The position numbers and the translations under genes are program-made. A model generated the notes under the pieces. The model saw nothing but the letters and a program-made list of their open reading frames with translations. It had not been told where the DNA came from and did no database searches. From the IMG/VR virus record IMGVR_UViG_3300047565_000335, positions 1-38,805 of that record: DNA of 38,805 nt; one strand, 5' to 3'. This document shows, piece by piece, positions 15,730-38,574 of this stretch; within the stretch, counting starts at the first letter, position 1; every line of letters starts with the position of its first letter. Source of the DNA: a virus (taxonomy: Duplodnaviria; Caudoviricetes).

Positions 15730-16767
15730 TTAACCAGCTAAAGAACTGACATTACTAAACAGATACATAGCTGTAGCCTGAGTGATTACCGCAGTCCGAT
15801 TTGACACGGCTGGGTAATAGTAAGAACGGGTCATTTCGTCGTAATAGACAGGTTCAAACACCTTGATTTCGTCCCTAATTCCAAAGGTGTAAAGACAACT
15901 AGCTTGCCCCATATCCGCTTCGGGGTGGCCGTTAAAGCCGTTGGTCTCGCCATAGCTTTGCTCAGCGTCCAACATGCTGGACTTGTCGCCGAACTCGGCC
16001 ACGTAACCCATCCAAAACATATTGGAATACATCTTTAAGCGCGGGTCAGTCAGCGGCGCACCTTCGGGGCGATAAGCGGCATTCCCCACCATCAATTTGC
16101 CCAGGCCGTAAGCCTCAGCGATCGCCTTTTCACTAGCGAAAAAGTTGTTGGTGCTGTTGGCATTGTTGGTGAAACGGTTACGGGTTTCGGGGTGCCGTTG
16201 CAGTGCCTTAAAAGCATTCAAAGAGCAGACCGTGATGTTTGGATAGAAACCCGTTTTATCAAAGATGGCGGTTCTGGCGATGTCAATATCTAGGGATGGG
16301 GTGGAAGTAGTACCCGCGCTCCACTGGGTACCTGCCAGCAAAGTGGTCTTGTTACCAACCGGAAAGTTCGCTGGGTTAGAAATTAGCTGACTAACCCGAA
16401 ACTCCCGATCAAGGTCTAAGGCATAGTTGGTTTTGCGGGTGGCCTGTTGGTCGAGCGCCACGCCCGTTACACCCACTGCTCTAAGCGCTTCTTTGACCAG
16501 CTTGTAGGCGATCGCTTGCTCGGTGATGGTGGCAAATTCGGTACTAAAGTCCCAGGAGAAATGTTTGATGCGTTCACCAAAAGCCCGATCGACATTGAAC
16601 AGCGTCAAGGCTGAATCATCAAAGCGCGGGTACTTGAAAACGTATTGGTCGGAGGGGACGATCGGGGCATAGTTATCAGCGATTAAGCTGCCGTTGCCCA
16701 GCCGCATAGCGAAATTGTTCAGCACGTAGTCGAACTTAGTGTCCGCTGCGTTCATGGGGATGCCCAT
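15730..16767 (-). CDS. Major capsid protein
   Basis: 345 aa after protease and decoration genes; IAD..AP.V, E.RV..L, W....S.P..DI, G..PN, F.AL..HP pattern. Confidence 0.85.
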   Translation of the reverse strand: MGIPMNAADTKFDYVLNNFAMRLGNGSLIADNYAPIVPSDQYVFKYPRFDDSALTLFNVDRAFGERIKHFSWDFSTEFATITEQAIAYKLVKEALRAVGVTGVALDQQATRKTNYALDLDREFRVSQLISNPANFPVGNKTTLLAGTQWSAGTTSTPSLDIDIARTAIFDKTGFYPNITVCSLNAFKALQRHPETRNRFTNNANSTNNFFASEKAIAEAYGLGKLMVGNAAYRPEGAPLTDPRLKMYSNMFWMGYVAEFGDKSSMLDAEQSYGETNGFNGHPEADMGQASCLYTFGIRDEIKVFEPVYYDEMTRSYYYPAVSNRTAVITQATAMYLFSNVSSLAG

Positions 16768-17266: not shown

Positions 17267-18178
17267 TTAAGCAGCGCAGGCTTTCATAGCAGCGGCATAA
17301 CCAACGCTATTTTTCACCATGTAGGCTTTGATTTTTTTGTCCATGGCCATAGACTCGTCTTCGCCTTCATCACCGTCGCCATCATCAGCCATGGCAAATT
17401 CAGCTTGGGGGTCTTCGCCCAAGGGCACCACCTTTTTAGCGATCGCCTGGGCTAAGAAAGCCACGGCAGCATTGCCACCGCTCTTGGGCTGGGCAAATTC
17501 AGCACTGAAGCTATCAATGGGTACCAGGGCAAGCTTGGTAAATACATCCACCAGGCCAGCTTGGTCAGCGGGAGCGATCGCGCCTTTGGCTACCAAATTC
17601 GAGACGATTGGGAGTACCTGTTTACTGGCCTCAAACTGGGCTTCTCTAGCCGCAAACTCAGCTTCCTTAGCCTTAATTGCCTCTTCTCTGGCTCTCAATT
17701 CTTCTTCGTCCATGCTGGTACCTGTAATTTGGATAAATGAAACTTTTTCGCCTTGGCTGAATTGAGCAGTAGGCAATTTTTCTAAGGCCACCTGGTCGCT
17801 GCCAAAAAAGAAACCGACGTGATCGAATTCGATCCCATCAGTGCTGTTGGCTTTGTTGCCAGGTAAGCGAATCTTGGCGGAGATTTTGGGCTTGGTTTTG
17901 TTTACCAAACTTCGGAACCCGGCCTTAACTCCTTCGTAAGCAGCAGCCGCCACCCGTCCAGATGAGTCGATCGCTAGTTTGGTGACGTGGCCATAGTGTT
18001 CTTCATTGCTGGCAGGGTGGCCAATCACCAGCGGAATCTTGTGGCCAGATTCGTTAAAGTGCGCCACCGTCGCCACCAATTGGGCGCGGCTCACCGGAAC
18101 AACCTGCTGATGATAATCAACATGTCGCCCTGGGTAAAAAATCTGGATGGGTTTTAAGCCGTTCACTGGTTCAATCAC
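17267..18178 (-). CDS. Prohead protease/scaffold (Mu gpI-like); possible internal scaffold start at ATG 17713
   Basis: IQIFYPG.H, PLVIGHP, KISA and HVGFF motifs; coiled-coil acidic C-terminal half ending Y..KN.VGYAAA. Confidence 0.85.
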   Translation of the reverse strand: MIEPVNGLKPIQIFYPGRHVDYHQQVVPVSRAQLVATVAHFNESGHKIPLVIGHPASNEEHYGHVTKLAIDSSGRVAAAAYEGVKAGFRSLVNKTKPKISAKIRLPGNKANSTDGIEFDHVGFFFGSDQVALEKLPTAQFSQGEKVSFIQITGTSMDEEELRAREEAIKAKEAEFAAREAQFEASKQVLPIVSNLVAKGAIAPADQAGLVDVFTKLALVPIDSFSAEFAQPKSGGNAAVAFLAQAIAKKVVPLGEDPQAEFAMADDGDGDEGEDESMAMDKKIKAYMVKNSVGYAAAMKACAA

Positions 18179-18188
18179 AAGACATAAC

Positions 18189-18226
18189 TGTAATGATAAT
18201 CCGAAACGAGAATGAGAATCGTTACT
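18189..18226. promoter_or_regulatory. Tandem Fur-box-like sites upstream of the protease-capsid genes
   Basis: TGTAATGATAATCCGAAAC (13/19) and GAGAATGAGAATCGTTACT (14/19) against GATAATGATAATCATTATC, back to back. Confidence 0.4.
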
Positions 18227-18710
18227 AAGTCAAAAAAAGGTGGTCGGCAAAGATGCGTTTGATTTCCTCTCGATCGGCTGGGTTCACACCTAAGAATTCC
18301 CGCTTTGGGATGTGTTTAGTACCCAGTTGATGAAACTTTGCATAATTGAGGCTGCTCCCGATCGCCAGTTCTGCCCCATCAATTTGGTAAGTGATGGTAT
18401 CGCGCAAAGTAAAGGTGTCTTTTAAGATGTCGGTGGGGTTGGCTCTAGTACGCTTGTACAGTCTGGAGCCACCGCGTTTTTGTTTGCGGTTTTTGCTGCG
18501 TTCTTTGGCGCGGATGGTGGCCGCTGCTAAGGGTGCCCAAGCTGCCCCATTAGGAGTCTGGGAGAGGTCAAATCTACTGCGAGTTTGCAGTAGCATATAT
18601 TCCCCGATCGCCCTTTGAGCTGGTCGGAGGTTTTGGGCTTGTGCAACCAATAAAGAGAGCCGCTTTACAGCGCTTTCACTGCCTGATACCTTGAGGTTAA
18701 ATGCTGCCAA
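18225..18710 (-). CDS. Virion morphogenesis protein (Mu gpG-like)
   Basis: IGE.ML..T..RF....P.G..WAPL...T; L.DT..LR.TI; YA..HQLG....PKREFLG. Confidence 0.9.
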   Translation of the reverse strand: MAAFNLKVSGSESAVKRLSLLVAQAQNLRPAQRAIGEYMLLQTRSRFDLSQTPNGAAWAPLAAATIRAKERSKNRKQKRGGSRLYKRTRANPTDILKDTFTLRDTITYQIDGAELAIGSSLNYAKFHQLGTKHIPKREFLGVNPADREEIKRIFADHLFLT

Positions 18711-19143
18711 CTTGCTACCCTATAGACTGCTAATCGTGCTACTTAAATCTAATGCCCGTTCTAGAGAAATAGCCAAATTCCTGGGAGTGAGCCAAAGTGA
18801 ATTGCTAGATATTTTTAGCGACAGGCTGGGAAATGTACTACTAGAAATAGTACAAAAGGAATGCCGGAATCGGCCAACTAAGTTAGCGATCCGGCAGTGG
18901 CTATTATTTAATATATGCCCCGATCGGCGGCGAGTGTCTCACGCGGTGAAGGCGGCGCGGTACCGGGCGGGTCTGACCCAGAAGGAATTAGCAGCGCGGT
19001 TGGGTGTGAAGGCAGGGCTGGTGGTGAATGTAGAAAGATGTTTGGCAGTGAATGTGGAACGGGTGAGGGCGATCGCGCTTACGCTGCAAGATGTGAAATT
19101 GAATCAGTTGCTGTTTGAAATTGGGTGGATCGATCGCTTTTAG
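18691..19143 (+). CDS. XRE-family HTH transcriptional regulator (true start probably slightly downstream)
   Basis: VKAARYRAGLTQKELAARLGVKAGLVVNVER; possible second HTH (REIAKFLGVSQSEL). Confidence 0.75.
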   Translation: MRLNAANLLPYRLLIVLLKSNARSREIAKFLGVSQSELLDIFSDRLGNVLLEIVQKECRNRPTKLAIRQWLLFNICPDRRRVSHAVKAARYRAGLTQKELAARLGVKAGLVVNVERCLAVNVERVRAIALTLQDVKLNQLLFEIGWIDRF

Positions 19144-19433
19144 TACCTCGCTCCGTCAGGCAATTTTTCGGGCAAAATATCTAAAATTTCACTTCCTTCA
19201 AGAATTTCAAAAAGAATTTTGTTTGTTTTTAATGCGCAGTACAAGTCTAGGGGCGTAGTAGCATCACCAATTATGTGACCGTAGCAGCCACATAATTTTG
19301 AAATCCTGTCCCGCCACAAGTGAGCAGCAGGATAGCCTGTCCCTACTTGCTCAAACTTCAGTGGGGCGTTTTTGTCGGGGTGATCGGAATCAATCGAGAC
19401 AATTATTCCAGCTGGCAAAGCTATCTTAAACAT
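19140..19433 (-). CDS. Small protein downstream of MuF-peptidase, candidate immunity/inhibitor
   Basis: 97 aa, starts 2 nt after the MuF stop; toxin-immunity layout. Confidence 0.6.
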   Translation of the reverse strand: MFKIALPAGIIVSIDSDHPDKNAPLKFEQVGTGYPAAHLWRDRISKLCGCYGHIIGDATTPLDLYCALKTNKILFEILEGSEILDILPEKLPDGARY

Positions 19434-19435
19434 AA

Positions 19436-20944
19436 TTAAGATCTCTGTTTTTTTAGATATTTAATTGTCAATTTAAAATGCTCTTTATCGGCATTCCACA
19501 GATGTAACATATTTTCTGGTGAATCAAAATGCTCAAACCCTACCGAAAGAACCTCTGTGAAAGAATCTTCGTAAATTTTACCCACATATTTATCAACAAA
19601 ATGATCAGGGTAAAATTTTTCCTCATCAGGGTGATCCCAACCATAAATTTCTCTGCCTGTTTGAAGCTCCCCAGTTGCTCTTGATTTCAGCCAATCGTTG
19701 CTTTCCTTTGAACCATATTCTAATTCCGCAAAATGAGCCATTTCATGAAAAATTGAGCTTTTACTAGCATCACCCACATTAATCCTACCTAATTCAAATG
19801 TCGCGGTAGGGCGACGGCCAGAATAAACAAATTCCCTCAAGTGATTAGCACCACCACCATTAGTTAGCTGGAAAAATTCAACAGCACTTTCTCGGATTTT
19901 ATTTCGGGATCTATCAACATTCATGTCAATTTTTCCAACTAATTTCATCGCCTCTTCTTGAGCCATCCCTGTATCAAGCAAGTTTTGGCGCAGTTGCTCC
20001 ATTATTTCTTTTTTTCTTGGCGTTTCCTTTCGTTTTTTATTCCTGGCATAGATCTCATCAATCTGATCTATGATTTCATCGCTGTTAGACCCTGGGGAAT
20101 TTAGCTTAGCCCAAAGCTCTTTAGTCGATTCTATTTCCTGTTTTTCTAATTCTTCGATCAGGTCATCTATGCTATCGGCTGCTCCTGTTCTAAGTTCGTC
20201 CTCTTGCAGATGCCAACGAGAATTATTAAGTACATAAGTTTTTCCATTTAAAATTTTGGTTTTGCCTTCAGGAATTTTGGCAAACTTGGCATCTACATAC
20301 AAACTGCCCCGCATCGCATCCTTCAAAGTCCGATCGACCTTCAACTGGTCAATTTTTTGCTCAATGTCGTCCCGATACAAAAAGCCTTCGTCTGGCTCTA
20401 GGTCAAATACCGAGAGCTTACCGCCGTTGCGTTCAAAGTCTCGCGGGGAAAGGCTGAAATACTGGCAGGTGCAACCAAATCCCGATGGTAGCGGCACCGT
20501 CACATCTTCAATTTTAAATATTTTGCGATCCATGGCTAAATGCTCTGGTCTAGGGTCAGAGCTATTGCCATGTCGCCATTGTAGATATGGGCGATCGGTA
20601 GCAGTTTCTTGCATCTGTTGCCAGCGCCCTAGACCGTAAGCTTGACGGATGTTTTGGTCATAAATTAATTGCGCGCGCCATGCCGATCGACCAGCCCAGC
20701 GATCGGATACTTTGGCAAACCGGGTAATAAAATCTTGGGCAGATTCCCCGGCTTCGATCGCTCTGCCCAAGGTGTCGTGGATGTCTTGGAGCAAAGCACC
20801 CTTAGCAGCGGCTACGGTGAAGTTAGCCAGCTGCTGGGTGCCTTGGCCATCTACCCAAGTGTCGGTATCTAGCCCGGTTTTCTGGGCGAAATAGTCGATC
20901 GCTTCTTGGGGTGTTAGCTGGTCATTTTGGATCTGAATCGGCAT
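19436..20944 (-). CDS. MuF (gp30) head morphogenesis protein fused to a C-terminal zincin metallopeptidase
   Basis: EAIDYF..K, FTVA, IYDQN...AY..GRW, RP.H, GFGC.C; C-terminal HEMAH (19733-19747) and TEVLSVGFE. Confidence 0.88.
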   Translation of the reverse strand: MPIQIQNDQLTPQEAIDYFAQKTGLDTDTWVDGQGTQQLANFTVAAAKGALLQDIHDTLGRAIEAGESAQDFITRFAKVSDRWAGRSAWRAQLIYDQNIRQAYGLGRWQQMQETATDRPYLQWRHGNSSDPRPEHLAMDRKIFKIEDVTVPLPSGFGCTCQYFSLSPRDFERNGGKLSVFDLEPDEGFLYRDDIEQKIDQLKVDRTLKDAMRGSLYVDAKFAKIPEGKTKILNGKTYVLNNSRWHLQEDELRTGAADSIDDLIEELEKQEIESTKELWAKLNSPGSNSDEIIDQIDEIYARNKKRKETPRKKEIMEQLRQNLLDTGMAQEEAMKLVGKIDMNVDRSRNKIRESAVEFFQLTNGGGANHLREFVYSGRRPTATFELGRINVGDASKSSIFHEMAHFAELEYGSKESNDWLKSRATGELQTGREIYGWDHPDEEKFYPDHFVDKYVGKIYEDSFTEVLSVGFEHFDSPENMLHLWNADKEHFKLTIKYLKKQRS

Positions 20945-20976
20945 TTTTCAAAGTGATATCTTCAGTGGTATCCTGA

Positions 20977-21471
20977 CTACTCAAATTCGGCCTCAAAATA
21001 CCCTTGTAAACCAGCTAAGGTCAGGTGTTGATTCACTTCTTGGGCAAATTCAGCACTTTCTAGCTGGGGAAACATTTCAAAGATCGCTTCTTGAGCTGTG
21101 CCCAAATCATCGGCGGTGAATATTACATCCTTAATCTGGTCGAGCCACTTGCTGAACTGAGCATCACCGACGTTTTTGAGGCTGGCAATTACTGTTTCTT
21201 GGCCTTCGGGGTACTTCTCGAATTTGGCCTCTGGCTCTTTCACTTCACCGTAATTGGCCAGCTTAATAGCCACGCCAGTATCGGTGATTTTGATGGCCAA
21301 TACTTTGCCGCCATCTTGCCCGATCGCGATGATGTCACCGTTATCGTCAAATTTGGCGGCGCGAATGGCTTCCATCCCGTCACCATAGGGTGGGGATTCA
21401 CCAGGGGCGGCGGGGTTGTTTAAAAAGTTGAGAATGGCTGGGTAGCGATCGGGCGTGATGGTTTCGGGCAT
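20977..21471 (-). CDS. Head protein whose C-terminal half resembles the C-terminal helical domain of Mu gp29-type portals
   Basis: W.DQI...I..A.DL..A...I...FP.L....FA......L..A.L.G immediately before MuF; five A[KQE]F motifs. Confidence 0.6.
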   Translation of the reverse strand: MPETITPDRYPAILNFLNNPAAPGESPPYGDGMEAIRAAKFDDNGDIIAIGQDGGKVLAIKITDTGVAIKLANYGEVKEPEAKFEKYPEGQETVIASLKNVGDAQFSKWLDQIKDVIFTADDLGTAQEAIFEMFPQLESAEFAQEVNQHLTLAGLQGYFEAEFE

Positions 21472-21476
21472 GGGGT

Positions 21477-21638
21477 TTAGTTGGTTTTTGTCTTGGGCTG
21501 GTCGGTTTTGGTTTCCGGCAGCATTGAAGGATCAGAGTCTGGCGTTGTAGGTATTTTGTAAACACCATCTTTAAAGCTGTCATCTAAAATAAAGCTGCCA
21601 TCCGGCTGAAATCCGGTCTTTGTTTTATTGGTATTCAT
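21477..21638 (-). CDS. 53-aa ORF missing from the track (MNTNKTKTGFQPDGSFILDDSFKDGVYKIP...), candidate partner/immunity of the JAB protein
   Basis: ATG overlaps the end of the JAB gene and the ORF ends 5 nt before the next start, filling the gap exactly. Confidence 0.55.
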   Translation of the reverse strand: MNTNKTKTGFQPDGSFILDDSFKDGVYKIPTTPDSDPSMLPETKTDQPKTKTN

Positions 21639-22839
21639 GTTCTTTCCTGGTGTATTTGGCTCCGATTAAATCGGCATAAGAAGTCGCTAAATCGTGCCAG
21701 TAGTCTGCATTCATTTTATTCTGAAGCTTTTGGAATTCTTCTGGTGAATCCATTTGCTGAGAGTTATAAAGCCTCCGGCCACCTTGATGTTGCTGGGTAG
21801 CTTCAATCGTCGCAATCATTTTCTTAGCTGCCGAAAGGCTAGGCCAGCCATTGGGTGGACGCAAAATCGAATGTATGTATTTCCGGCTAATTGCTCTAAT
21901 TTCACTTAGATCAGCACCCACCGCAATCTCCAAATCATCTCTACTAAAAGAATTGCCACCACTACGAGTGTCAACAGCTTCAAAGTTCCAGCCGTCTGGG
22001 TGATTGTGGCTTAAAATGCCTGATGCCATCTGATTGACTTCTTCACTCGTGAAAGCGACTTGATCACTAGTTCCGTCTTTGGTGAAAGCTTTTTGACCGC
22101 GAAAATCCACCACCATGGCAGATTCAAAAGACTGCTTATATTTTTCTCTCTCAAAGGCATGAATAGCGGCTATTCCTGTCAATTCTTTTGATTGATTTAC
22201 CGATTTTTCAAACTGGGCATACTGACCATGCGGCTTTTTTAAAATCCCCTGATCGGGATGATAGAGAAAATCATGAATTTGCAGCTGGCTACTGCCTGCG
22301 CTGATTTTGATAGGGGAGTGGCTGACTTGGTAAGACTCCGCCGGGGAATCATAATTGGTGGTCACGCCGCCAGATAATACCGCCGAGCTACCAGCGCCAA
22401 TTTGAACCCGGTGGCCGCTGCCATCTGTTGTGATTTTAATGGTCTGGGGCGACCTGGTAATCTTCATGTCCCCCAAATCCAATGTATTTCCAGACTTGGT
22501 GATTTCGTGGCCACCATCTACCATTTTTAATGTGTAGGGTTTGGTTTTGGCAAGAGACTCCATCAGCTCTTTACGGGCTTGGCGATCTTCAGACCTGGTG
22601 ATTTTGTCTTCTGCTGCTGTTTCATCGCGATCGGCTTTTTCTAGGTTATTTTCCAACAGTTCATCTGTTTCAGTCGATCGCCAACGGCTGTCTTTGAGAT
22701 AGTAACTCTTGCCCTTAATTGTTTTGGTGGTACCTTCGGGGATTTTGGCAAATTCGGCCTTTTCTAATTCTGGTAGCAGGGTAGTCGCTGCAAAGTTAGC
22801 CGCCGTTTCTCTCAGGATGATTTCTAAATCTAAGGCCAT
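21625..22839 (-). CDS. Putative virion cargo protein with C-terminal JAB/MPN-like domain
   Basis: E...HNHP.G...SFS..D motif (HNHP at 21997-22008); N-terminal module shared with MuF; coupled to the portal stop. Confidence 0.72.
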   Translation of the reverse strand: MALDLEIILRETAANFAATTLLPELEKAEFAKIPEGTTKTIKGKSYYLKDSRWRSTETDELLENNLEKADRDETAAEDKITRSEDRQARKELMESLAKTKPYTLKMVDGGHEITKSGNTLDLGDMKITRSPQTIKITTDGSGHRVQIGAGSSAVLSGGVTTNYDSPAESYQVSHSPIKISAGSSQLQIHDFLYHPDQGILKKPHGQYAQFEKSVNQSKELTGIAAIHAFEREKYKQSFESAMVVDFRGQKAFTKDGTSDQVAFTSEEVNQMASGILSHNHPDGWNFEAVDTRSGGNSFSRDDLEIAVGADLSEIRAISRKYIHSILRPPNGWPSLSAAKKMIATIEATQQHQGGRRLYNSQQMDSPEEFQKLQNKMNADYWHDLATSYADLIGAKYTRKEHEYQ

Positions 22840-25580
22840 CAGTATTTACCCCCTTTGATAATCTCGGCTACCTGGCTGTATAGCTCTTTTTGTACCGCTG
22901 CCTGTTTCTCACCACCAGCCACCCGCAGAGCGGCGGCGTTCAGTGCTTTAGCGATCGGCCCCGAAGCATTTTTTAAACCATCAAAAACACCCATAGCTAC
23001 AGCGGAATCATCGGCGATCGCCTTAGATGCTGCCGAGTCAATTTGGTTATTGCCCCGCGCCAATTCTTGAGCCGATTTACTCTTAGCCACCAGGCCAAAA
23101 ATCCGCTTGTCTTTGCCCAGCTGGGAGCGGATGCCAGCCGCTAAACCAGCCCGTTCGATCGCGTTGGTTTTGGTTTCAAAGCTACCGCCAAATAAATCGA
23201 ATTGCTCAACTTGCTGGGTACTGCTGGCCTTCACCCCAGCGACTAGTTCCGCCAACACTCCATCATTTAATTTTTTGCCCTTTTTCTCGCTGAGTTTGTA
23301 TAGGTCGCGCTGCTGCTCTGGCTTCAGTCCAGCGTCCCCAATAATGGCGGCGCGTGCTTCGCTGAGGTCGCCCATCACGACTTTTTCAAACAAAGTCGGT
23401 TCCAGTTTCGCGATCGCAATCCCTTTTTGAGCAATCTGTTCGCGCATTGGGATGCCCTTAGCCTTCAGGTCAGCTTCACTTAATCCGGTATCTCGGAAAA
23501 ATTTAGCTGCGTCCAAGCCAGTGCCCCGGCCTTCGGCAATGTTGGTTAAGGCTCCGATCGCTCTGGCGTGGGCAGCGTCAGGGGCATCGATTACCCTGGC
23601 CGTTATCTTCTCAGCTCCGGCTCGGTTAGCCAGTGCTAGCCGGTTGTGGCCATTGATTACATAGAGTTGTTTATCAGCGGGGTCCCGCCAAACCTGTACC
23701 ACCCCGGCTAAGTTTGGATCATAGGTGCTGACACCAGATAAGCTGCCAACTTCCCCAGTTTTGGTATGCTCGCCAATTAGTTTGTATTGGAAACGTTTGG
23801 GATCGGCCTGAATATCTTTGGCATCAATTTCACCCACAAAACCCGGTTCTACTTTCAGCGCTGCTGGGCGCTGCTGGGCTTCGGCTAGGTCGGCTTTTAG
23901 TTTAGCTATCAGCGCTTTTTGCTTTTCACTAGCATCCTTATGGCAGGTTTTGCCACCACTGATACAAACTACCCCACAGCTAATATTTTGAGGTTGGCAT
24001 TTAGCCTTTTTCTTAGTCGCGCTGGTTTTCTTTACTGCTCCACCACGAAATTCTGCACTTTGGAATTTTTCCAGCAGCATTTCAGCCACTGGCAACAAAG
24101 GATCTTCAGCAGCCGCAAACTTAGCATTATCTAGCGCCGACTGTGCCGTCGGCGCGTCTAGTGGCGGCGCTGGCTCACCCGCTGGTTGCCCTAGTGCCCC
24201 TTCCCCACCACCCAAATTCTTAGTAATCGCCTCGATCGACTTATCCGGCCAACTTGGAAAAGCGCCCTTAATCATCCCAAATACTAGTTCTGGCTTCCAG
24301 CTACCCTGCTGGGCATTAGAGACGATCGACACCAGCGCATTGACCTGTTCACCATTTAGCTGAGTGAGCGCGTCATCAGCTTCGGGAATCTCATAGTTAT
24401 CACCATATTTCTGGGCGATCGCATCAGCTTTTAATTTAATCCCCAGGCCAGACAGCACTACATCGGTGTCGGCCTCGGCCTTGATGTCCTTGCTCTCGAA
24501 ATTCCGCCACACTTTGGGAATGGCCGCGCCGGGAAAATTCCATTCGGTGAGGTATCTCGCGATCGACTCATTGAAAGTCTGACACATCACATCGGAAAGC
24601 TGCTTGGCAAAAGCCAGCCCGATGTCTTGGTGTACTTCCGCTTGGGAGCGCGATGACCCATTATCAGTGGTCATGGTTTGACCATTGATGATTTTACTAA
24701 TGGCTGCGTTGCAGATATCCACCATTCCCTGGTAGTCGCTGCCGCCTGCTCGGGCTGCTTCAATCAGCTTAATTTCGGTGCCTTCCGGGCTGGATGTCCA
24801 GTCATCTTCACCAAAGGCTTCTAGCGCTTTTTCCAGGGCTTCAATATCGTCTTCTTGGCTACCTAGTGGGTAAGTGCCATGGCGATGGGGTTTAGCATAT
24901 TTTTCGAGGAACAGCACCCACCAGCGCATTCCTTGCCGCTTAAAAAAGGTTGGCCAGTATAACCAGTAGGCCAAGCCCCGCCCGTTGGGGTCATCTACCG
25001 AGTCACCGCCGATCGAGAATGTCCAGTATTTGTTAGGTAGCAGTTCGCCGCCGTTATAGTTCCGGTTGTTGCGCCAGCGGATTTCATTTTCATAAGTCCA
25101 TAAAAATCTTTTCCGACTTCTGACCAGCAAATCTTTTAAGACCACCCGATCGCCTGATAGCTCATACATGGCTTCAGCTACACTAAAGCCCCAGAACTTA
25201 CCCGCCGCCATCTTGGCACAGCGATCGTCAAAGGGAATATTCGTTAATTGCTGTTTGAGGTCTTCAGCGGCTTGGATATCGATCGGCTGGTCACCACCGG
25301 GCAACACCATGATTTCCCGGCTGATGATTTGGCTAATTAGTTGGCTTAAACCTGCTTCTACCTGGTCGTCTTGACGGACTGGCTCATAGAATTCTAAATT
25401 CCCTTTGCCCTTTCCTTTGAGGATCGGGTCAGTGCTGCCCAGTACATATTTATCAAGATAGGCACCCCAGAAATCAGCTCTTTTGGGGGTCTGCTCTTTG
25501 TTGATGACAGCTCTAGCGATCGCGGGCGGTATCGCTGCTTTCTGCTGTTTTTTGGCTTTAGATTGGGTCTGTGCTGGCAT
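22839..25580 (-). CDS. Portal protein (DUF935/Mu gp29) with C-terminal extension: Cys4 motif and ParB-like domain
   Basis: GFSVAE, P.GRGL...LYW..FFK, FLEKY..P...G.Y, ISKII.GQTMT..GSSRS.AEVH; extension contains DPKRFQY and VINGHNRLA. Confidence 0.9.
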   Translation of the reverse strand: MPAQTQSKAKKQQKAAIPPAIARAVINKEQTPKRADFWGAYLDKYVLGSTDPILKGKGKGNLEFYEPVRQDDQVEAGLSQLISQIISREIMVLPGGDQPIDIQAAEDLKQQLTNIPFDDRCAKMAAGKFWGFSVAEAMYELSGDRVVLKDLLVRSRKRFLWTYENEIRWRNNRNYNGGELLPNKYWTFSIGGDSVDDPNGRGLAYWLYWPTFFKRQGMRWWVLFLEKYAKPHRHGTYPLGSQEDDIEALEKALEAFGEDDWTSSPEGTEIKLIEAARAGGSDYQGMVDICNAAISKIINGQTMTTDNGSSRSQAEVHQDIGLAFAKQLSDVMCQTFNESIARYLTEWNFPGAAIPKVWRNFESKDIKAEADTDVVLSGLGIKLKADAIAQKYGDNYEIPEADDALTQLNGEQVNALVSIVSNAQQGSWKPELVFGMIKGAFPSWPDKSIEAITKNLGGGEGALGQPAGEPAPPLDAPTAQSALDNAKFAAAEDPLLPVAEMLLEKFQSAEFRGGAVKKTSATKKKAKCQPQNISCGVVCISGGKTCHKDASEKQKALIAKLKADLAEAQQRPAALKVEPGFVGEIDAKDIQADPKRFQYKLIGEHTKTGEVGSLSGVSTYDPNLAGVVQVWRDPADKQLYVINGHNRLALANRAGAEKITARVIDAPDAAHARAIGALTNIAEGRGTGLDAAKFFRDTGLSEADLKAKGIPMREQIAQKGIAIAKLEPTLFEKVVMGDLSEARAAIIGDAGLKPEQQRDLYKLSEKKGKKLNDGVLAELVAGVKASSTQQVEQFDLFGGSFETKTNAIERAGLAAGIRSQLGKDKRIFGLVAKSKSAQELARGNNQIDSAASKAIADDSAVAMGVFDGLKNASGPIAKALNAAALRVAGGEKQAAVQKELYSQVAEIIKGGKY

Positions 25581-36346: not shown

Positions 36347-37456
36347 ATGCCCCTAGTTAAAATAAATCTCAAAATATCTAATGGGCGCTGCCAGCTGCAC
36401 TTCACTCACCAGGGCAAACCATATTATTTTTCCCCTGGCTTCCCGGACACGCCAGAAGGCCGCGCTTATACCCAGCTACTGGCCTCCAGAATTCAGGACG
36501 ACATTTTAAAAGATCGGTTTACCGACCTGGCCACTTACCGCCAGACCAAGAAAACCGCCCCGGCCACTGAGCCGCTGCCACCAGCCAGCCTTGCTAAGCT
36601 GTGGCCAGCTTATTTGGATTATTTACGGCCACAAAGGTCGCCCTCCACCATGGGCACCCAGTTCAAATGGCAGACCCAAATTTTAGACAGATGCCCGTTT
36701 GACCTTGACCAAGCGCCCAAGATTAGGGACTGGGCGCTAGAAAACCACACCCCAGACAGCGCTAAGCGGCTAATCGTGGCGTTGGGGGCTTGCTGTCGCT
36801 GGGCAGTATCTAGCCAGCTGCTGGCGGATAACCCGTTTGAGGGCATCAAAATCGAACTACCCAAAAAAGAGCGGGTTCAGATCGACCCTTTTACGGCGGA
36901 AGAGCGCGATCGAATCATTAATGCGATCGGCAGCAGCCCCAAGTGGGATTATTACCAGCGAGTAGTCCAATTCCTGTTTTTTACCGGGTGCCGGATATCA
37001 GAAGCGATCGCCCTGGAGTGGTCGCACATTGCCAATGATGGGCAGTTCTTAATTTTTGAGCAAGCCGCCGTTACCGATGAGCTGGGCAGGATGCGGATTA
37101 AGCCAGGACTCAAGCGGCAGCAAAAACGCAAAATCCCACTTAGCGATCGGGTGCGGAATTGTTTGGGCGATCGACAAGAAGGCTTAGTATTTCCCGCGCC
37201 GCGCACTGATGGCCTGATTGACCTCGGCAGTAATTTCGCCCAAAGAACCTGGCGACCAGCCCTTAGAGCCGCCTCGGTAGAGTACCGCAATCTTTACAAC
37301 TGCCGTCACACATTTATTACCCTGGCCATGCGCGGTGGTGGCGGCAGGTCGGGCTTGTCGGTGCAGGACGTGGCTAAGCTAGTAGGCAATTCCCCGGAGA
37401 TAATTTATCGGCATTACGCTGGGACTATGGTTGATCTGAGCTTGCCGGATTGGTGA
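36347..37456 (+). CDS. int: Tyrosine integrase (cyanobacterial type with N-terminal arm-binding domain)
   Basis: TGCRISE (R), GLK, YNCRHTF, VGNS, RHYA (Y). Confidence 0.93.
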   Translation: MPLVKINLKISNGRCQLHFTHQGKPYYFSPGFPDTPEGRAYTQLLASRIQDDILKDRFTDLATYRQTKKTAPATEPLPPASLAKLWPAYLDYLRPQRSPSTMGTQFKWQTQILDRCPFDLDQAPKIRDWALENHTPDSAKRLIVALGACCRWAVSSQLLADNPFEGIKIELPKKERVQIDPFTAEERDRIINAIGSSPKWDYYQRVVQFLFFTGCRISEAIALEWSHIANDGQFLIFEQAAVTDELGRMRIKPGLKRQQKRKIPLSDRVRNCLGDRQEGLVFPAPRTDGLIDLGSNFAQRTWRPALRAASVEYRNLYNCRHTFITLAMRGGGGRSGLSVQDVAKLVGNSPEIIYRHYAGTMVDLSLPDW

Positions 37457-38042
37457 CATTTATCCAATTCCAGGCAGTCGAGATCGAAATCTGATACTTT
37501 TTGGCCAGCGCCTCATAAGTCCAGCCACCCGCCGCATAGTCGGTTTTCACTCCCAACATCCGCTTAGTATTGGCTCTGGCCACTGGTTGGCCTTGATGGC
37601 GGCAGTGGCAGCAAAAGTAAGTTTTAGTTAGTTTTTGCTCGACAAAAGACCTTTTGCCACAGTTCGGACAGCTGCGATTCTCGCCTTTGATTTTTCTGGG
37701 TTTTGGTGTTAGCCTTGCCCGACTGGCTGACCAACACAAATTATCAGCGCGGCAATTGTTCTGGTCGCCGTCTTTGTGCCGAACATTTGCAAACTTGTTA
37801 GGGTTTGGTACAAATGCCCTGGCTACTAGGACATCAACAGAAAAGGTTTTAGAAGTGCCATCGCAAATTGTCACCGACACTTTGCCACTGGGCAATACGT
37901 TGTTCTTGCGGATGCTTTCCTGAACGAGCCGCCTGCCAGAGCTAGCACCTACCCAACGTTTTAGAGTTTTGATTCGGCCAAAGCTGGAGATTTCGTAAGT
38001 AGATTCCCAGCCCTCGATCGGCTTCCAAATTTCTTCAATCAT
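37425..38042 (-). CDS. NUMOD4-HNH homing endonuclease-like protein with zinc ribbon and C-terminal HTH
   Basis: EIWKPIEGWE..YEISSFGRIK; LVARAFVPNP....VRHKDGD..NC..DNL; CPNC..CCHC; likely start ATG 38042. Confidence 0.85.
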   Translation of the reverse strand: MIEEIWKPIEGWESTYEISSFGRIKTLKRWVGASSGRRLVQESIRKNNVLPSGKVSVTICDGTSKTFSVDVLVARAFVPNPNKFANVRHKDGDQNNCRADNLCWSASRARLTPKPRKIKGENRSCPNCGKRSFVEQKLTKTYFCCHCRHQGQPVARANTKRMLGVKTDYAAGGWTYEALAKKYQISISTAWNWINVTNPASSDQP

Positions 38043-38574
38043 TGGCCTGGTTCCGGTATTTAGCAAAATTGGCAAATATCCGATCGAGTAGTTCATTGCT
38101 CACTCCAGCTTCAAAGCAGCTTCTTTGCAACCAGTTATCGGTTTCAGCCCCTTCAGCCGCAGCAAATAGATTCAAAGCAATGCTTTGAGCTTCATCTAAT
38201 CCAAAACTAAGAGGGCGACCTGGTATCCAGCTAATGCTTACCAATGGGGCCTGAGTTTTTGCCCCAAAAATTGGTGACATCCCATCCAATTCTTCATAGC
38301 CTCTACCCGATCGAATGGATTGCAAGAGTCCATAAAAAGCCGCCGCCGCTTGGTCGGCATCAGCTTCTTCTTTGTCTGTCAAGAGTAGGCTGGTCATGGT
38401 ACTGGCCGCGTTAGCTTCTACCGCCGCAGTTGCCGCCACCAGCATCAGCCGATTAGCCCTATTCCGGGCTTCTTTTGGGATCAGGATTTCTGTCCAATCC
38501 CCAAAGCTGCATTCAACTACGTTGGTGTCACCAGGTTCGAGATAAACCGATCGGCATAAAAACTGGTCACTCAA
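38035..38574 (-). CDS. Hypothetical phage protein with two EA...A..L...A..A.. repeats
   Basis: Likely TTG start at 38574 after an AAGGAG-like sequence, overlapping the upstream stop. Confidence 0.6.
   Translation of the reverse strand: MSDQFLCRSVYLEPGDTNVVECSFGDWTEILIPKEARNRANRLMLVAATAAVEANAASTMTSLLLTDKEEADADQAAAAFYGLLQSIRSGRGYEELDGMSPIFGAKTQAPLVSISWIPGRPLSFGLDEAQSIALNLFAAAEGAETDNWLQRSCFEAGVSNELLDRIFANFAKYRNQAND

Follow-up and report, generated by a model that had tools for sequence, protein, structure and literature searches.

Candidate protease-released virion cargo on Mu-type carriers in the head-gene block of a likely cyanobacterial phage

The 38.8-kb stretch of DNA analysed here (“the window”) is one virus record, IMGVR_UViG_3300047565_000335, 54% complete, whose minus strand carries a block of head genes (17267-25580) whose products, in reading order, are a Mu-type portal of 913 amino acids (aa), two proteins of 404 aa and 164 aa, a MuF protein of 502 aa, a 97-aa protein, gpG, and a protease-scaffold of 303 aa. 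We propose that this block probably encodes a load-and-cut system on Mu-type carriers, in which the head protease would recognize the site Ala-[Glu/Gln/Lys]-Phe and release cargo in the prohead. The parts of this proposal are not equally firm: the motif very probably is a cut site of the head protease, and release of the retained cargo by cutting seems quite likely, while injection of that cargo is, in our estimate, an even bet. An initial annotation of the window had three effectors freed in this way (ParB-like, JAB, and metallopeptidase); the number of predicted pieces rises to four, since the 404-aa protein holds two of them.

The motif A[EKQN]F occurs 18 times in five head proteins, with about 2.5 copies expected (a hand sum of shuffle means), and 7 times in the 38 other open reading frames (ORFs), with about 6.9 expected (for one control row, 37425-38096, the strand used was the wrong one); expectations come from 2000 composition-keeping shuffles per protein. 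Per protein, with p-values that are optimistic because the motif was chosen after viewing this window, there are 5 copies in the protease/scaffold (0.55 expected, p 0.001), 5 in the 164-aa protein (0.31, p 0.0005), 3 in the 404-aa protein (0.25, p 0.0025), 2 in MuF (0.42, p 0.06), and 3 in the portal (0.97, p 0.07). All the copies listed in the initial annotation are present, the shuffle counts that it proposed as a check put the other ORFs at background, and the tape measure, in which it had found no copy by eye, indeed has none (1.52 expected). Its statement that the motif marks domain boundaries is borne out for the junction copies; two copies that it missed, at MuF aa 40 and portal aa 692, lie within conserved folds, the latter in the ParB-like domain, in whose alignment A118-K119 is invariant and F-F comes next. 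Among the five copies of the 164-aa protein, F84 is the only one invariant in 8 homologs, and those at aa 39, 104, and 140 are variable and apparently structural. A reading of all 18 copies as cut sites was rejected, several being structural or variable in homologs. As the motif had been picked from the window, we therefore placed the weight on tests in other genomes.

Of the four cargo pieces, three start with a small module of one of two kinds, called here the NSRW and Cys4 tags. The predicted carriers, sites, and pieces are the following, all on the minus strand:

24048..25580 (−): Mu-type portal core (aa 1-488) and the 23-aa linker helix between two sites (PF06074, E 2.6e-86)
24117-24125 and 24048-24056 (−): the two portal linker sites, by motif
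22842..24047 (−): cargo 4, Cys4 tag (23946-24002) and ParB-like domain, 42.3 kDa, net charge +16 (motif, Atlas features)
22750..22839 (−): leader of 30 aa at the start of the 404-aa protein, holding the sites 22792-22800 and 22750-22758; a candidate propeptide for loading into the procapsid
22210..22749 (−): cargo 3, NSRW tag (22681-22746) and a 150-aa domain without a name, 19.9 kDa (module in homologs)
21628..22209 (−): cargo 2, JAB/MPN-like domain with E...H-N-H...S-x-x-D, 21.9 kDa, untagged (site 22210-22218)
20977..21471 (−): 164-aa cargo-less carrier, with an N-terminal domain, a linker site (21220-21228), a small portal-end domain, and a terminal site (20983-20991), by profile
20282..20944 (−): MuF core, a carrier ending in the site D-A-K-F (20282-20290) (PF04233, E 6e-13)
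19439..20281 (−): cargo 1, NSRW tag (20213-20278), helical region, and HExxH zincin metallopeptidase, 32.6 kDa (motif and model)
19140..19433 (−): 97-aa protein, candidate metallopeptidase inhibitor (immunity), by co-occurrence
17759..18178 (−): protease domain for head maturation (aa 1-140), of the B3/BcepMu type (phrog_976, E 2.5e-27)
17270..17758 (−): scaffold half, five predicted cut sites
17759-17767, 17654-17662, 17633-17641, 17495-17503, and 17396-17404 (−): predicted scaffold cut sites, A[EQ]F motif

Relatives of this head block were gathered in several ways. The window's own proteins, used as direct locus queries, returned only 3 relatives and one metagenome scan returned none; a portal profile led to 240 loci, the majority from cargo-less proteobacterial phages, and a phylum search over 401 genomes gave 31 with portals, the head of that list being without new long-cargo cases. 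The host of the phage is likely cyanobacterial, because the close portal homologs have Chamaesiphon, Chroococcidiopsis, and Petrachloros as their named sources. In the portals of this clade (P0030-P0062), a proline-rich linker comes after the core, and the motif after that linker: 32 of the 33 show [AVSTI][EQK]F within 55 aa after the core (3.7 expected), the lone exception reading S-M-F-A, and the motif is held by 14 of 236 core windows. F488 of the window's portal is invariant in 31 aligned clade portals. Carrier homology breaks at the site, and the sequence past it falls into about 15 unrelated cargo groups, including kinase, ADP-ribosyltransferase, and DnaJ domains. Cargo is also shared among carriers, the JAB-like domain being borne by a portal in P0057 and the zincin by portals, leaders, and proteins of the 164-aa type. 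Ten clade MuF proteins were inspected by eye; in the eight with cargo the joint bears an F site, whose position is shared by six of them, and the two without cargo end there. Motifs at carrier-cargo joints are thus recovered in homologous portals, and at MuF joints in the cyanobacterial clade only; a family-wide MuF joint site was rejected. Nor is the site special to this phage; ordinary Mu-like portals have it family-wide.

The motif also swaps with protease family, for which we compared 61 non-redundant B3-type loci (of 147 complete) with nine non-redundant Mu-gpI-type loci (of 33). In the B3-type loci, FAE is the top de novo 3-mer in the scaffold and again in the portal tail, the word x-x-F-[AS]-E is found in scaffold and portal linker, and F[AS][ED] is enriched 8.9-fold in scaffolds and 16-fold in portal linkers, against 0.2-fold in portal cores and 1.1-fold in the terminase; 52 of the 61 portal linkers have an F site, for 10.7 expected. 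Mu itself repeats A-x-L-[SA]-A through the scaffold and has it once in the portal linker; over the nine Mu-gpI-type loci, the scaffolds have 0 F and 72 L sites, and an L site is present in 8/9 linkers (3.6 expected). Inside the B3 family, seven loci scored as L-only in the linker carry more scaffold L sites (fractions 0.3-0.83 vs. a mean of 0.23, p 7e-5), one of them, L007, being a pattern miss. The Mu virion map lacks the last 124 portal residues, and its authors cite cleavage by protease I (PMC11915804). Portal cleavage goes unmentioned in the corresponding parts of the JBD30 paper. Enriched in scaffolds, placed at joints, and swapping with the protease family, the motif behaves like the predicted head-protease site that the initial annotation took it for.

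The protease that the initial annotation called “I-type” is of the B3/BcepMu type instead of Mu gpI proper, with which it has no hidden Markov model (HMM) match and an hhalign profile-profile probability of 0.8%. Its candidate catalytic residues H54 and S100 are invariant in 28 homologs, in most of which the first scaffold motif copy follows directly after the protease domain. Comparison of its structural model (residues 2-156) gave T4 gp21 (Z 7.4, root-mean-square deviation (rmsd) 4.0, 115 aligned residues) and the VZV protease (Z 6.1) as the top two structure matches, with moderate Z scores, and a Foldseek search with the model had no match at E 0.001; the model points to the gp21/assemblin beta-barrel fold. 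The first and last scaffold sites fall in low-confidence segments of the model (128-157 and 250-273).

An NSRW profile built without the upstream residues matched 62 proteins among 1.84 billion. Once two repeat artefacts and domains under 16 bits had been removed, a Phe at most 3 residues upstream of the tag is present in 23/23 non-query copies located in proteins with portal, MuF, or 164-aa-type domains, in 1/35 copies in long proteins without head domains, and in 5/13 others, for a background of 0.087; the long proteins belong to polyvalent types, DarB-like ones included, in which ART, LPD1, MTase, and SNF2 domains occur. For the Cys4 tag, a site lies no more than 24 residues away in 37 of 39 distinct copies (chance 0.13, with a tuned pattern), and Tyr replaces Phe in both exceptions. 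Tags start exactly at F+1 or F+2. The NSRW tag has a predicted local distance difference test (pLDDT) score below 50 in the AlphaFold model, for which the alignment scarcely covered the tag. NSRW-type tags are also found after Met (P0201, P0212, P0216, P0219) or after G-R-K (P0215, P0220, P0224, P0226, P0229), which suggests further protease specificities.

As to the cargo pieces themselves, cargo 3, the JAB-like and ParB-like domains, and both tags remained unnamed by Pfam, NCBIfam, PHROGs, and PDB sequence searches, and for the labels JAB and ParB the basis is motifs together with features from a language model, with no profile match. GxxR is the motif of the ParB/Srx N-terminal domain; the G-H-N-R-L of the ParB-like domain is invariant in its alignment, and the domain has an Atlas feature score of 0.95 to ParB_N clusters (140-156 shared features), with no Pfam ParB or PDB sequence match. 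A homolog with 37% identity lies inside a 2563-aa protein of the T7-like Prochlorococcus phage P-SCSP1, encoded two genes after an internal virion protein, a position that by gene order would be the slot of the ejection protein gp16. The ParB-like domain is found in the largest internal-protein-slot gene of T7-like marine phages (L302:8983-9975, L304:7001-7981; P-SCSP1, S31-C1). JAB/MPN proteins have the motif E...HxH...SxxD, which the JAB-like domain retains in its portal-borne homolog P0057 and in ORF044 of Aphanizomenon phage CL131 (37% identity); its Atlas structure neighbours are fused to MuF, minor capsid, and portal proteins, Prok-JAB is a feature lead only (0.85, on 13% of an Atlas cluster), and no Pfam or PDB sequence match was obtained. 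The cargo 3 module is portal-fused in P0031 (75% over aa 18-214) and stands ahead of other cargo in P0174, P0179, and P0151. The 30-aa leader in front of it recurs ahead of unrelated cargo in P0153, P0159, P0181, P0205, and P0210, and we consider it a candidate signal for loading cargo into the procapsid by analogy with the capsid targeting sequence (CTS) of T4.

The 164-aa protein would be a carrier without cargo: its C-half, which corresponds to the domain at the end of ordinary Mu-type portals, has a profile match to Mu gpH aa 478-506 (E 4e-7), and its homologs P0187, P0191, and P0207 continue after the terminal site with a tag and cargo. To the scheme of the initial annotation this adds an unloaded carrier, and the small N-terminal tags found after most sites are a further addition. 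The MuF core has a variable C-terminal enzyme and lies within the portal-terminase cluster, a MuF polymorphic toxin layout; MuF toxins are reportedly the subject of a paper by Jamet et al. from 2017. The enzyme borne by the window's MuF is, from its motif and model, predicted to be a zincin metallopeptidase: the H-E-x-x-H and a later E are invariant in 10 homologs, and the model (pLDDT 82) has PPEP-3 as its best match (Z 10.2, rmsd 3.6, 144 aligned). An 87-109-aa gene follows the zincin cargo in 9/9 cargo matches, and the only homologs of the window's 97-aa protein, among 16,463 small ORFs of the loci, come immediately after this cargo, which is borne there by two different carriers; this placement suggests that the 97-aa gene encodes an inhibitor, or immunity protein, of the zincin, of a putative family.

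Aphanizomenon phage CL131, a cultured cyanophage, has a DUF2213 protease, i.e., another head-protease family, and its ORF044 is the match of the JAB-like cargo. Its Cys4 tags (ORF044, 045, 047, 048) come directly after R-x-D in 7/7 cases, and its scaffold contains 7 [RK]-x-D-[SAKFM] words vs. 1.5 expected (p 0.004, with the pattern set afterwards). This scaffold is without A[EKQN]F, as the window protease-scaffold is without D words, and the 1393-aa portal-InPase-MuF chain of CL131 has R-E-D-A at its MuF joint, the counterpart in the window being A-K-F-A. Liquid chromatography coupled with tandem mass spectrometry (LC-MS/MS) of CL131 virions detected ORF012, 044, 045, 047, and 048 with 59, 9, 33, 14, and 105 peptides, respectively (PMC6293099, Table S5, which gives no peptide positions). 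Same-tag proteins and a homolog of the JAB-like cargo are packaged in this cultured phage, and the window's own cargo may likewise enter virions; CL131 also provides a cultured test system. Two further features of this phage are the 1811-aa virion protein ORF048 (L303:15268-20703), with four Cys4-tagged modules and alpha/beta-hydrolase signals, and a third short tag, W-W-N-P-M-Q-H-I-R-N-S-R-G-Q-F, which follows an R-E-D site past MuF in the portal (L305:801-4982).

In the mechanism that we propose, the portal, MuF, the leader helix, and two domains of the 164-aa protein would carry cargo into the prohead, and the protease would cut x-[EQK]-F / small-or-basic in flexible linkers, digesting the scaffold. 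Pieces below about 9 kDa would exit via capsid pores and the four pieces of 20-42 kDa would remain, each basic tag, now at a new N-terminus, possibly holding its piece on the packaged DNA or leading its exit through the tail. The cargo would act at the start of infection, the ParB-like piece on incoming DNA and the JAB-like and zincin pieces on host or defence proteins, and the 97-aa gene product would restrain the zincin in the producing cell.

One has to consider that the sites could be cut and the cargo packaged and yet never injected, the pieces working within the head, where they might condense DNA, aid assembly, or clean up, or else within the producing cell, and the main effect of the cut being to clear portal and MuF. 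Ordinary Mu-like portals do have this site ahead of a small domain whose only fate is removal, the ParB-like piece is basic (+16), and folded pieces of 20-42 kDa would need to pass through a non-contractile tail; against this, the cargo is hypervariable and consists of enzymes (kinase, ADP-ribosyltransferase, GNAT, zincin), the ParB-like domain also occurs in the large T7-like protein of the presumed gp16 slot, and polyvalent proteins of the DarB-like and LPD1/ART kinds bear the NSRW tag as well, so that we regard this version as unlikely. Less probable still is an uncut docking peptide for scaffold, portal, or inner capsid wall, in the manner of an encapsulin loading peptide. Scaffold and passengers could be recruited through short hydrophobic motifs that they carry, and some copies lie in predicted helices, but docking does not fit a motif that tracks the protease family rather than the carrier, whose first copy stands just past the protease domain in most of the 28 homologs, and behind which tags begin exactly at F+1 or F+2, nor the removal of the Mu portal tail.

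The cut could also be made in a T4-like register, F-x-E and then the cut, with Phe at P3: the top words of proteobacterial B3-type loci (FAE, FSE, FGE, FAD) match the T4 rule L/I-X-E (PMC9026906). In the window's clade, however, F-2 is A in 20/34 sites and F-1 is E in 26/34, whereas F+1 (A/K/S) and F+2 (K/R/M/L) vary, and the Mu word ends in S-A, not E; we prefer a cut after Phe because the two residues past it vary in this clade, and we hold the T4-like register to be very improbable. We give next to no credit to the motif as a mere mark of DNA recombination joints for cassette exchange. Carrier homology does break at the sites, but 20 sites use 16 different 9-base strings that vary synonymously, and neither the five scaffold copies nor the protease-linked swap would be explained; on these three points, the recombination reading was rejected.

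Several observations weigh against release by cutting at these sites, or limit it. At least 5 of the 18 head-block copies are within folded parts, two scaffold sites lie within a predicted long helix (158-197), and an A-E-F in the major capsid protein (aa 257; 15991-15999), which recurs in L002-L004, may be structural or an extra loop cut. F[AS][ED] is not enriched in proteobacterial MuF tails (1.4-fold). L200 is a counter-example to the swap, with an L-type linker and an F-rich scaffold, and on a quick tree no more than 3 changes, 2 of them forced, account for the L-type switch within the B3 family. In Mu, A-A-L-S-A is at aa 427-431 (about 47.6 kDa), whereas the virion model ends at 388; a gel size of 44 kDa, presumably that of the Mu portal, fits the site only loosely. 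The JAB-like piece bears no tag in this phage, and 34/35 NSRW tags in long polyvalent proteins are without an F site, so that the tag does not require this cut. The patterns behind the clade-portal, linker, tag, and CL131-scaffold counts were set after the data were viewed, and the relatives are not independent of one another. Finally, the CL131 table lists 90 spectra for the protease/scaffold vs. 86 for the capsid protein (PMC6293099), and the preparation, in which the protease-scaffold is abundant, may thus include immature heads.

The general scheme is known. In T4, cleavage follows L/I-X-E or A-X-E, a propeptide loads internal proteins, the protease frees them, and many of the products are ejected (PMC9026906; PMC10052503); in jumbo phages, heads are processed by the proteases gp175 of phiKZ and gp245 of SPN3US (PMC10052503). 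The window resembles T4 (gp21, IPI-III/Alt, and the CTS) in having a related predicted protease fold and one short motif on scaffold and passengers. It differs from T4 and the jumbo phages in its predicted P1, Phe rather than Glu, within a conserved A-[EQK]-F with a variable F+2; in a 39-kb genome of temperate type with cargo on the portal, MuF, and portal-derived domains; in a second tag that would stay on the cargo after the cut; and in a capsid protein without an N-terminal site. With Mu gpH it shares the portal family, the small C-terminal domain, and a scaffold word repeated in the portal linker, but the Mu word is A-x-L-S-A, its protease belongs to a distant family, and Mu discards a small tail where variable cargo of 20-45 kDa is found here; no Mu cleavage consensus was found in the literature searched.

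Enzymatic domains fused to MuF or portal, as well as polyvalent proteins, have been proposed to be packaged and injected (PMC5512222; Zhang et al. 2012, PMC3482391; PMC9503650), and polyvalent proteins are described as scarce in cyanobacteria (Iyer et al. 2017, PMC5512222). As in those systems, a small gene stands behind a toxin-like domain in the window; the release motif and the tags are in none of these accounts, as far as the parts cited go. P1 DarB is another parallel, as a large cargo, believed to reach the cell interior, is loaded there by means of its first 30 residues (PMC9024508), and DarB-like MTase/SNF2 proteins carry the NSRW tag; in the parts of that paper cited here, the Dar N-termini have no consensus and removal of the DarB signal is not shown, whereas the leaders here end in a shared site. 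The initial annotation knew of no description of the full arrangement, and indeed no account of the motif, the tags, or the arrangement was found in the open literature (subscription papers and bioRxiv supplements were outside the scope), the general scheme of T4 and the jumbo phages being the part that is not new.

The proposal yields testable cleavage rules for two widespread families, A-x-L / S-A for Mu and x-[ESD]-F / [AS]-E for the B3 type. It would add a release step for portal- and MuF-fused effectors, for which injection has long been proposed but no explanation given of their exit from a 12-mer portal, and it would offer a way to list virion cargo from sequence and, in cyanobacterial phages, point to candidate proteins for early counter-defence. 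A tentative and rather doubtful extension is a two-part address code that small phages would share across several head-protease families, made of a site specific to the protease (x-E-F, A-x-L, R-x-D, and further ones with a final M or K) and a portable N-terminal tag (NSRW/Cys4) that, after its exposure by the cut, would route whatever domain it is attached to from the capsid along with the DNA. If it were true, injection could be programmed with Mu-type portals and MuF as the carriers, and the repeated word of a scaffold would predict the specificity of each protease from sequence alone.

Beyond the head block, the window encodes a tyrosine integrase, RecT, and a replication initiator; no DDE transposase A/B was seen among the scanned ORFs of this 54% complete record, and the tail ORFs had no sheath match in the profile scan, the tail being non-contractile. 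The head-block stretch is matched without differences by contigs of two runs, possibly its source. An IS200/IS605-type element, made of a serine resolvase and TnpB, occupies 205-1916, and a helix-turn-helix (HTH) gene lies on the opposite strand within the head block (18691-19143, +), a similar gene preceding the protease in L002-L004. In the close relatives L002-L006 and L089, the head genes are split into two blocks, terminase-portal-cargo-MuF and protease-capsid-tail. Elsewhere among the loci, Mu-type portals are fused to the anti-CBASS domain Acb1 (PF23474) in P0114, P0124, P0128, P0129, and others, and a prophage of G001 has two tandem, near-identical 261-aa tail-tube-like genes (L250:9940-11521).

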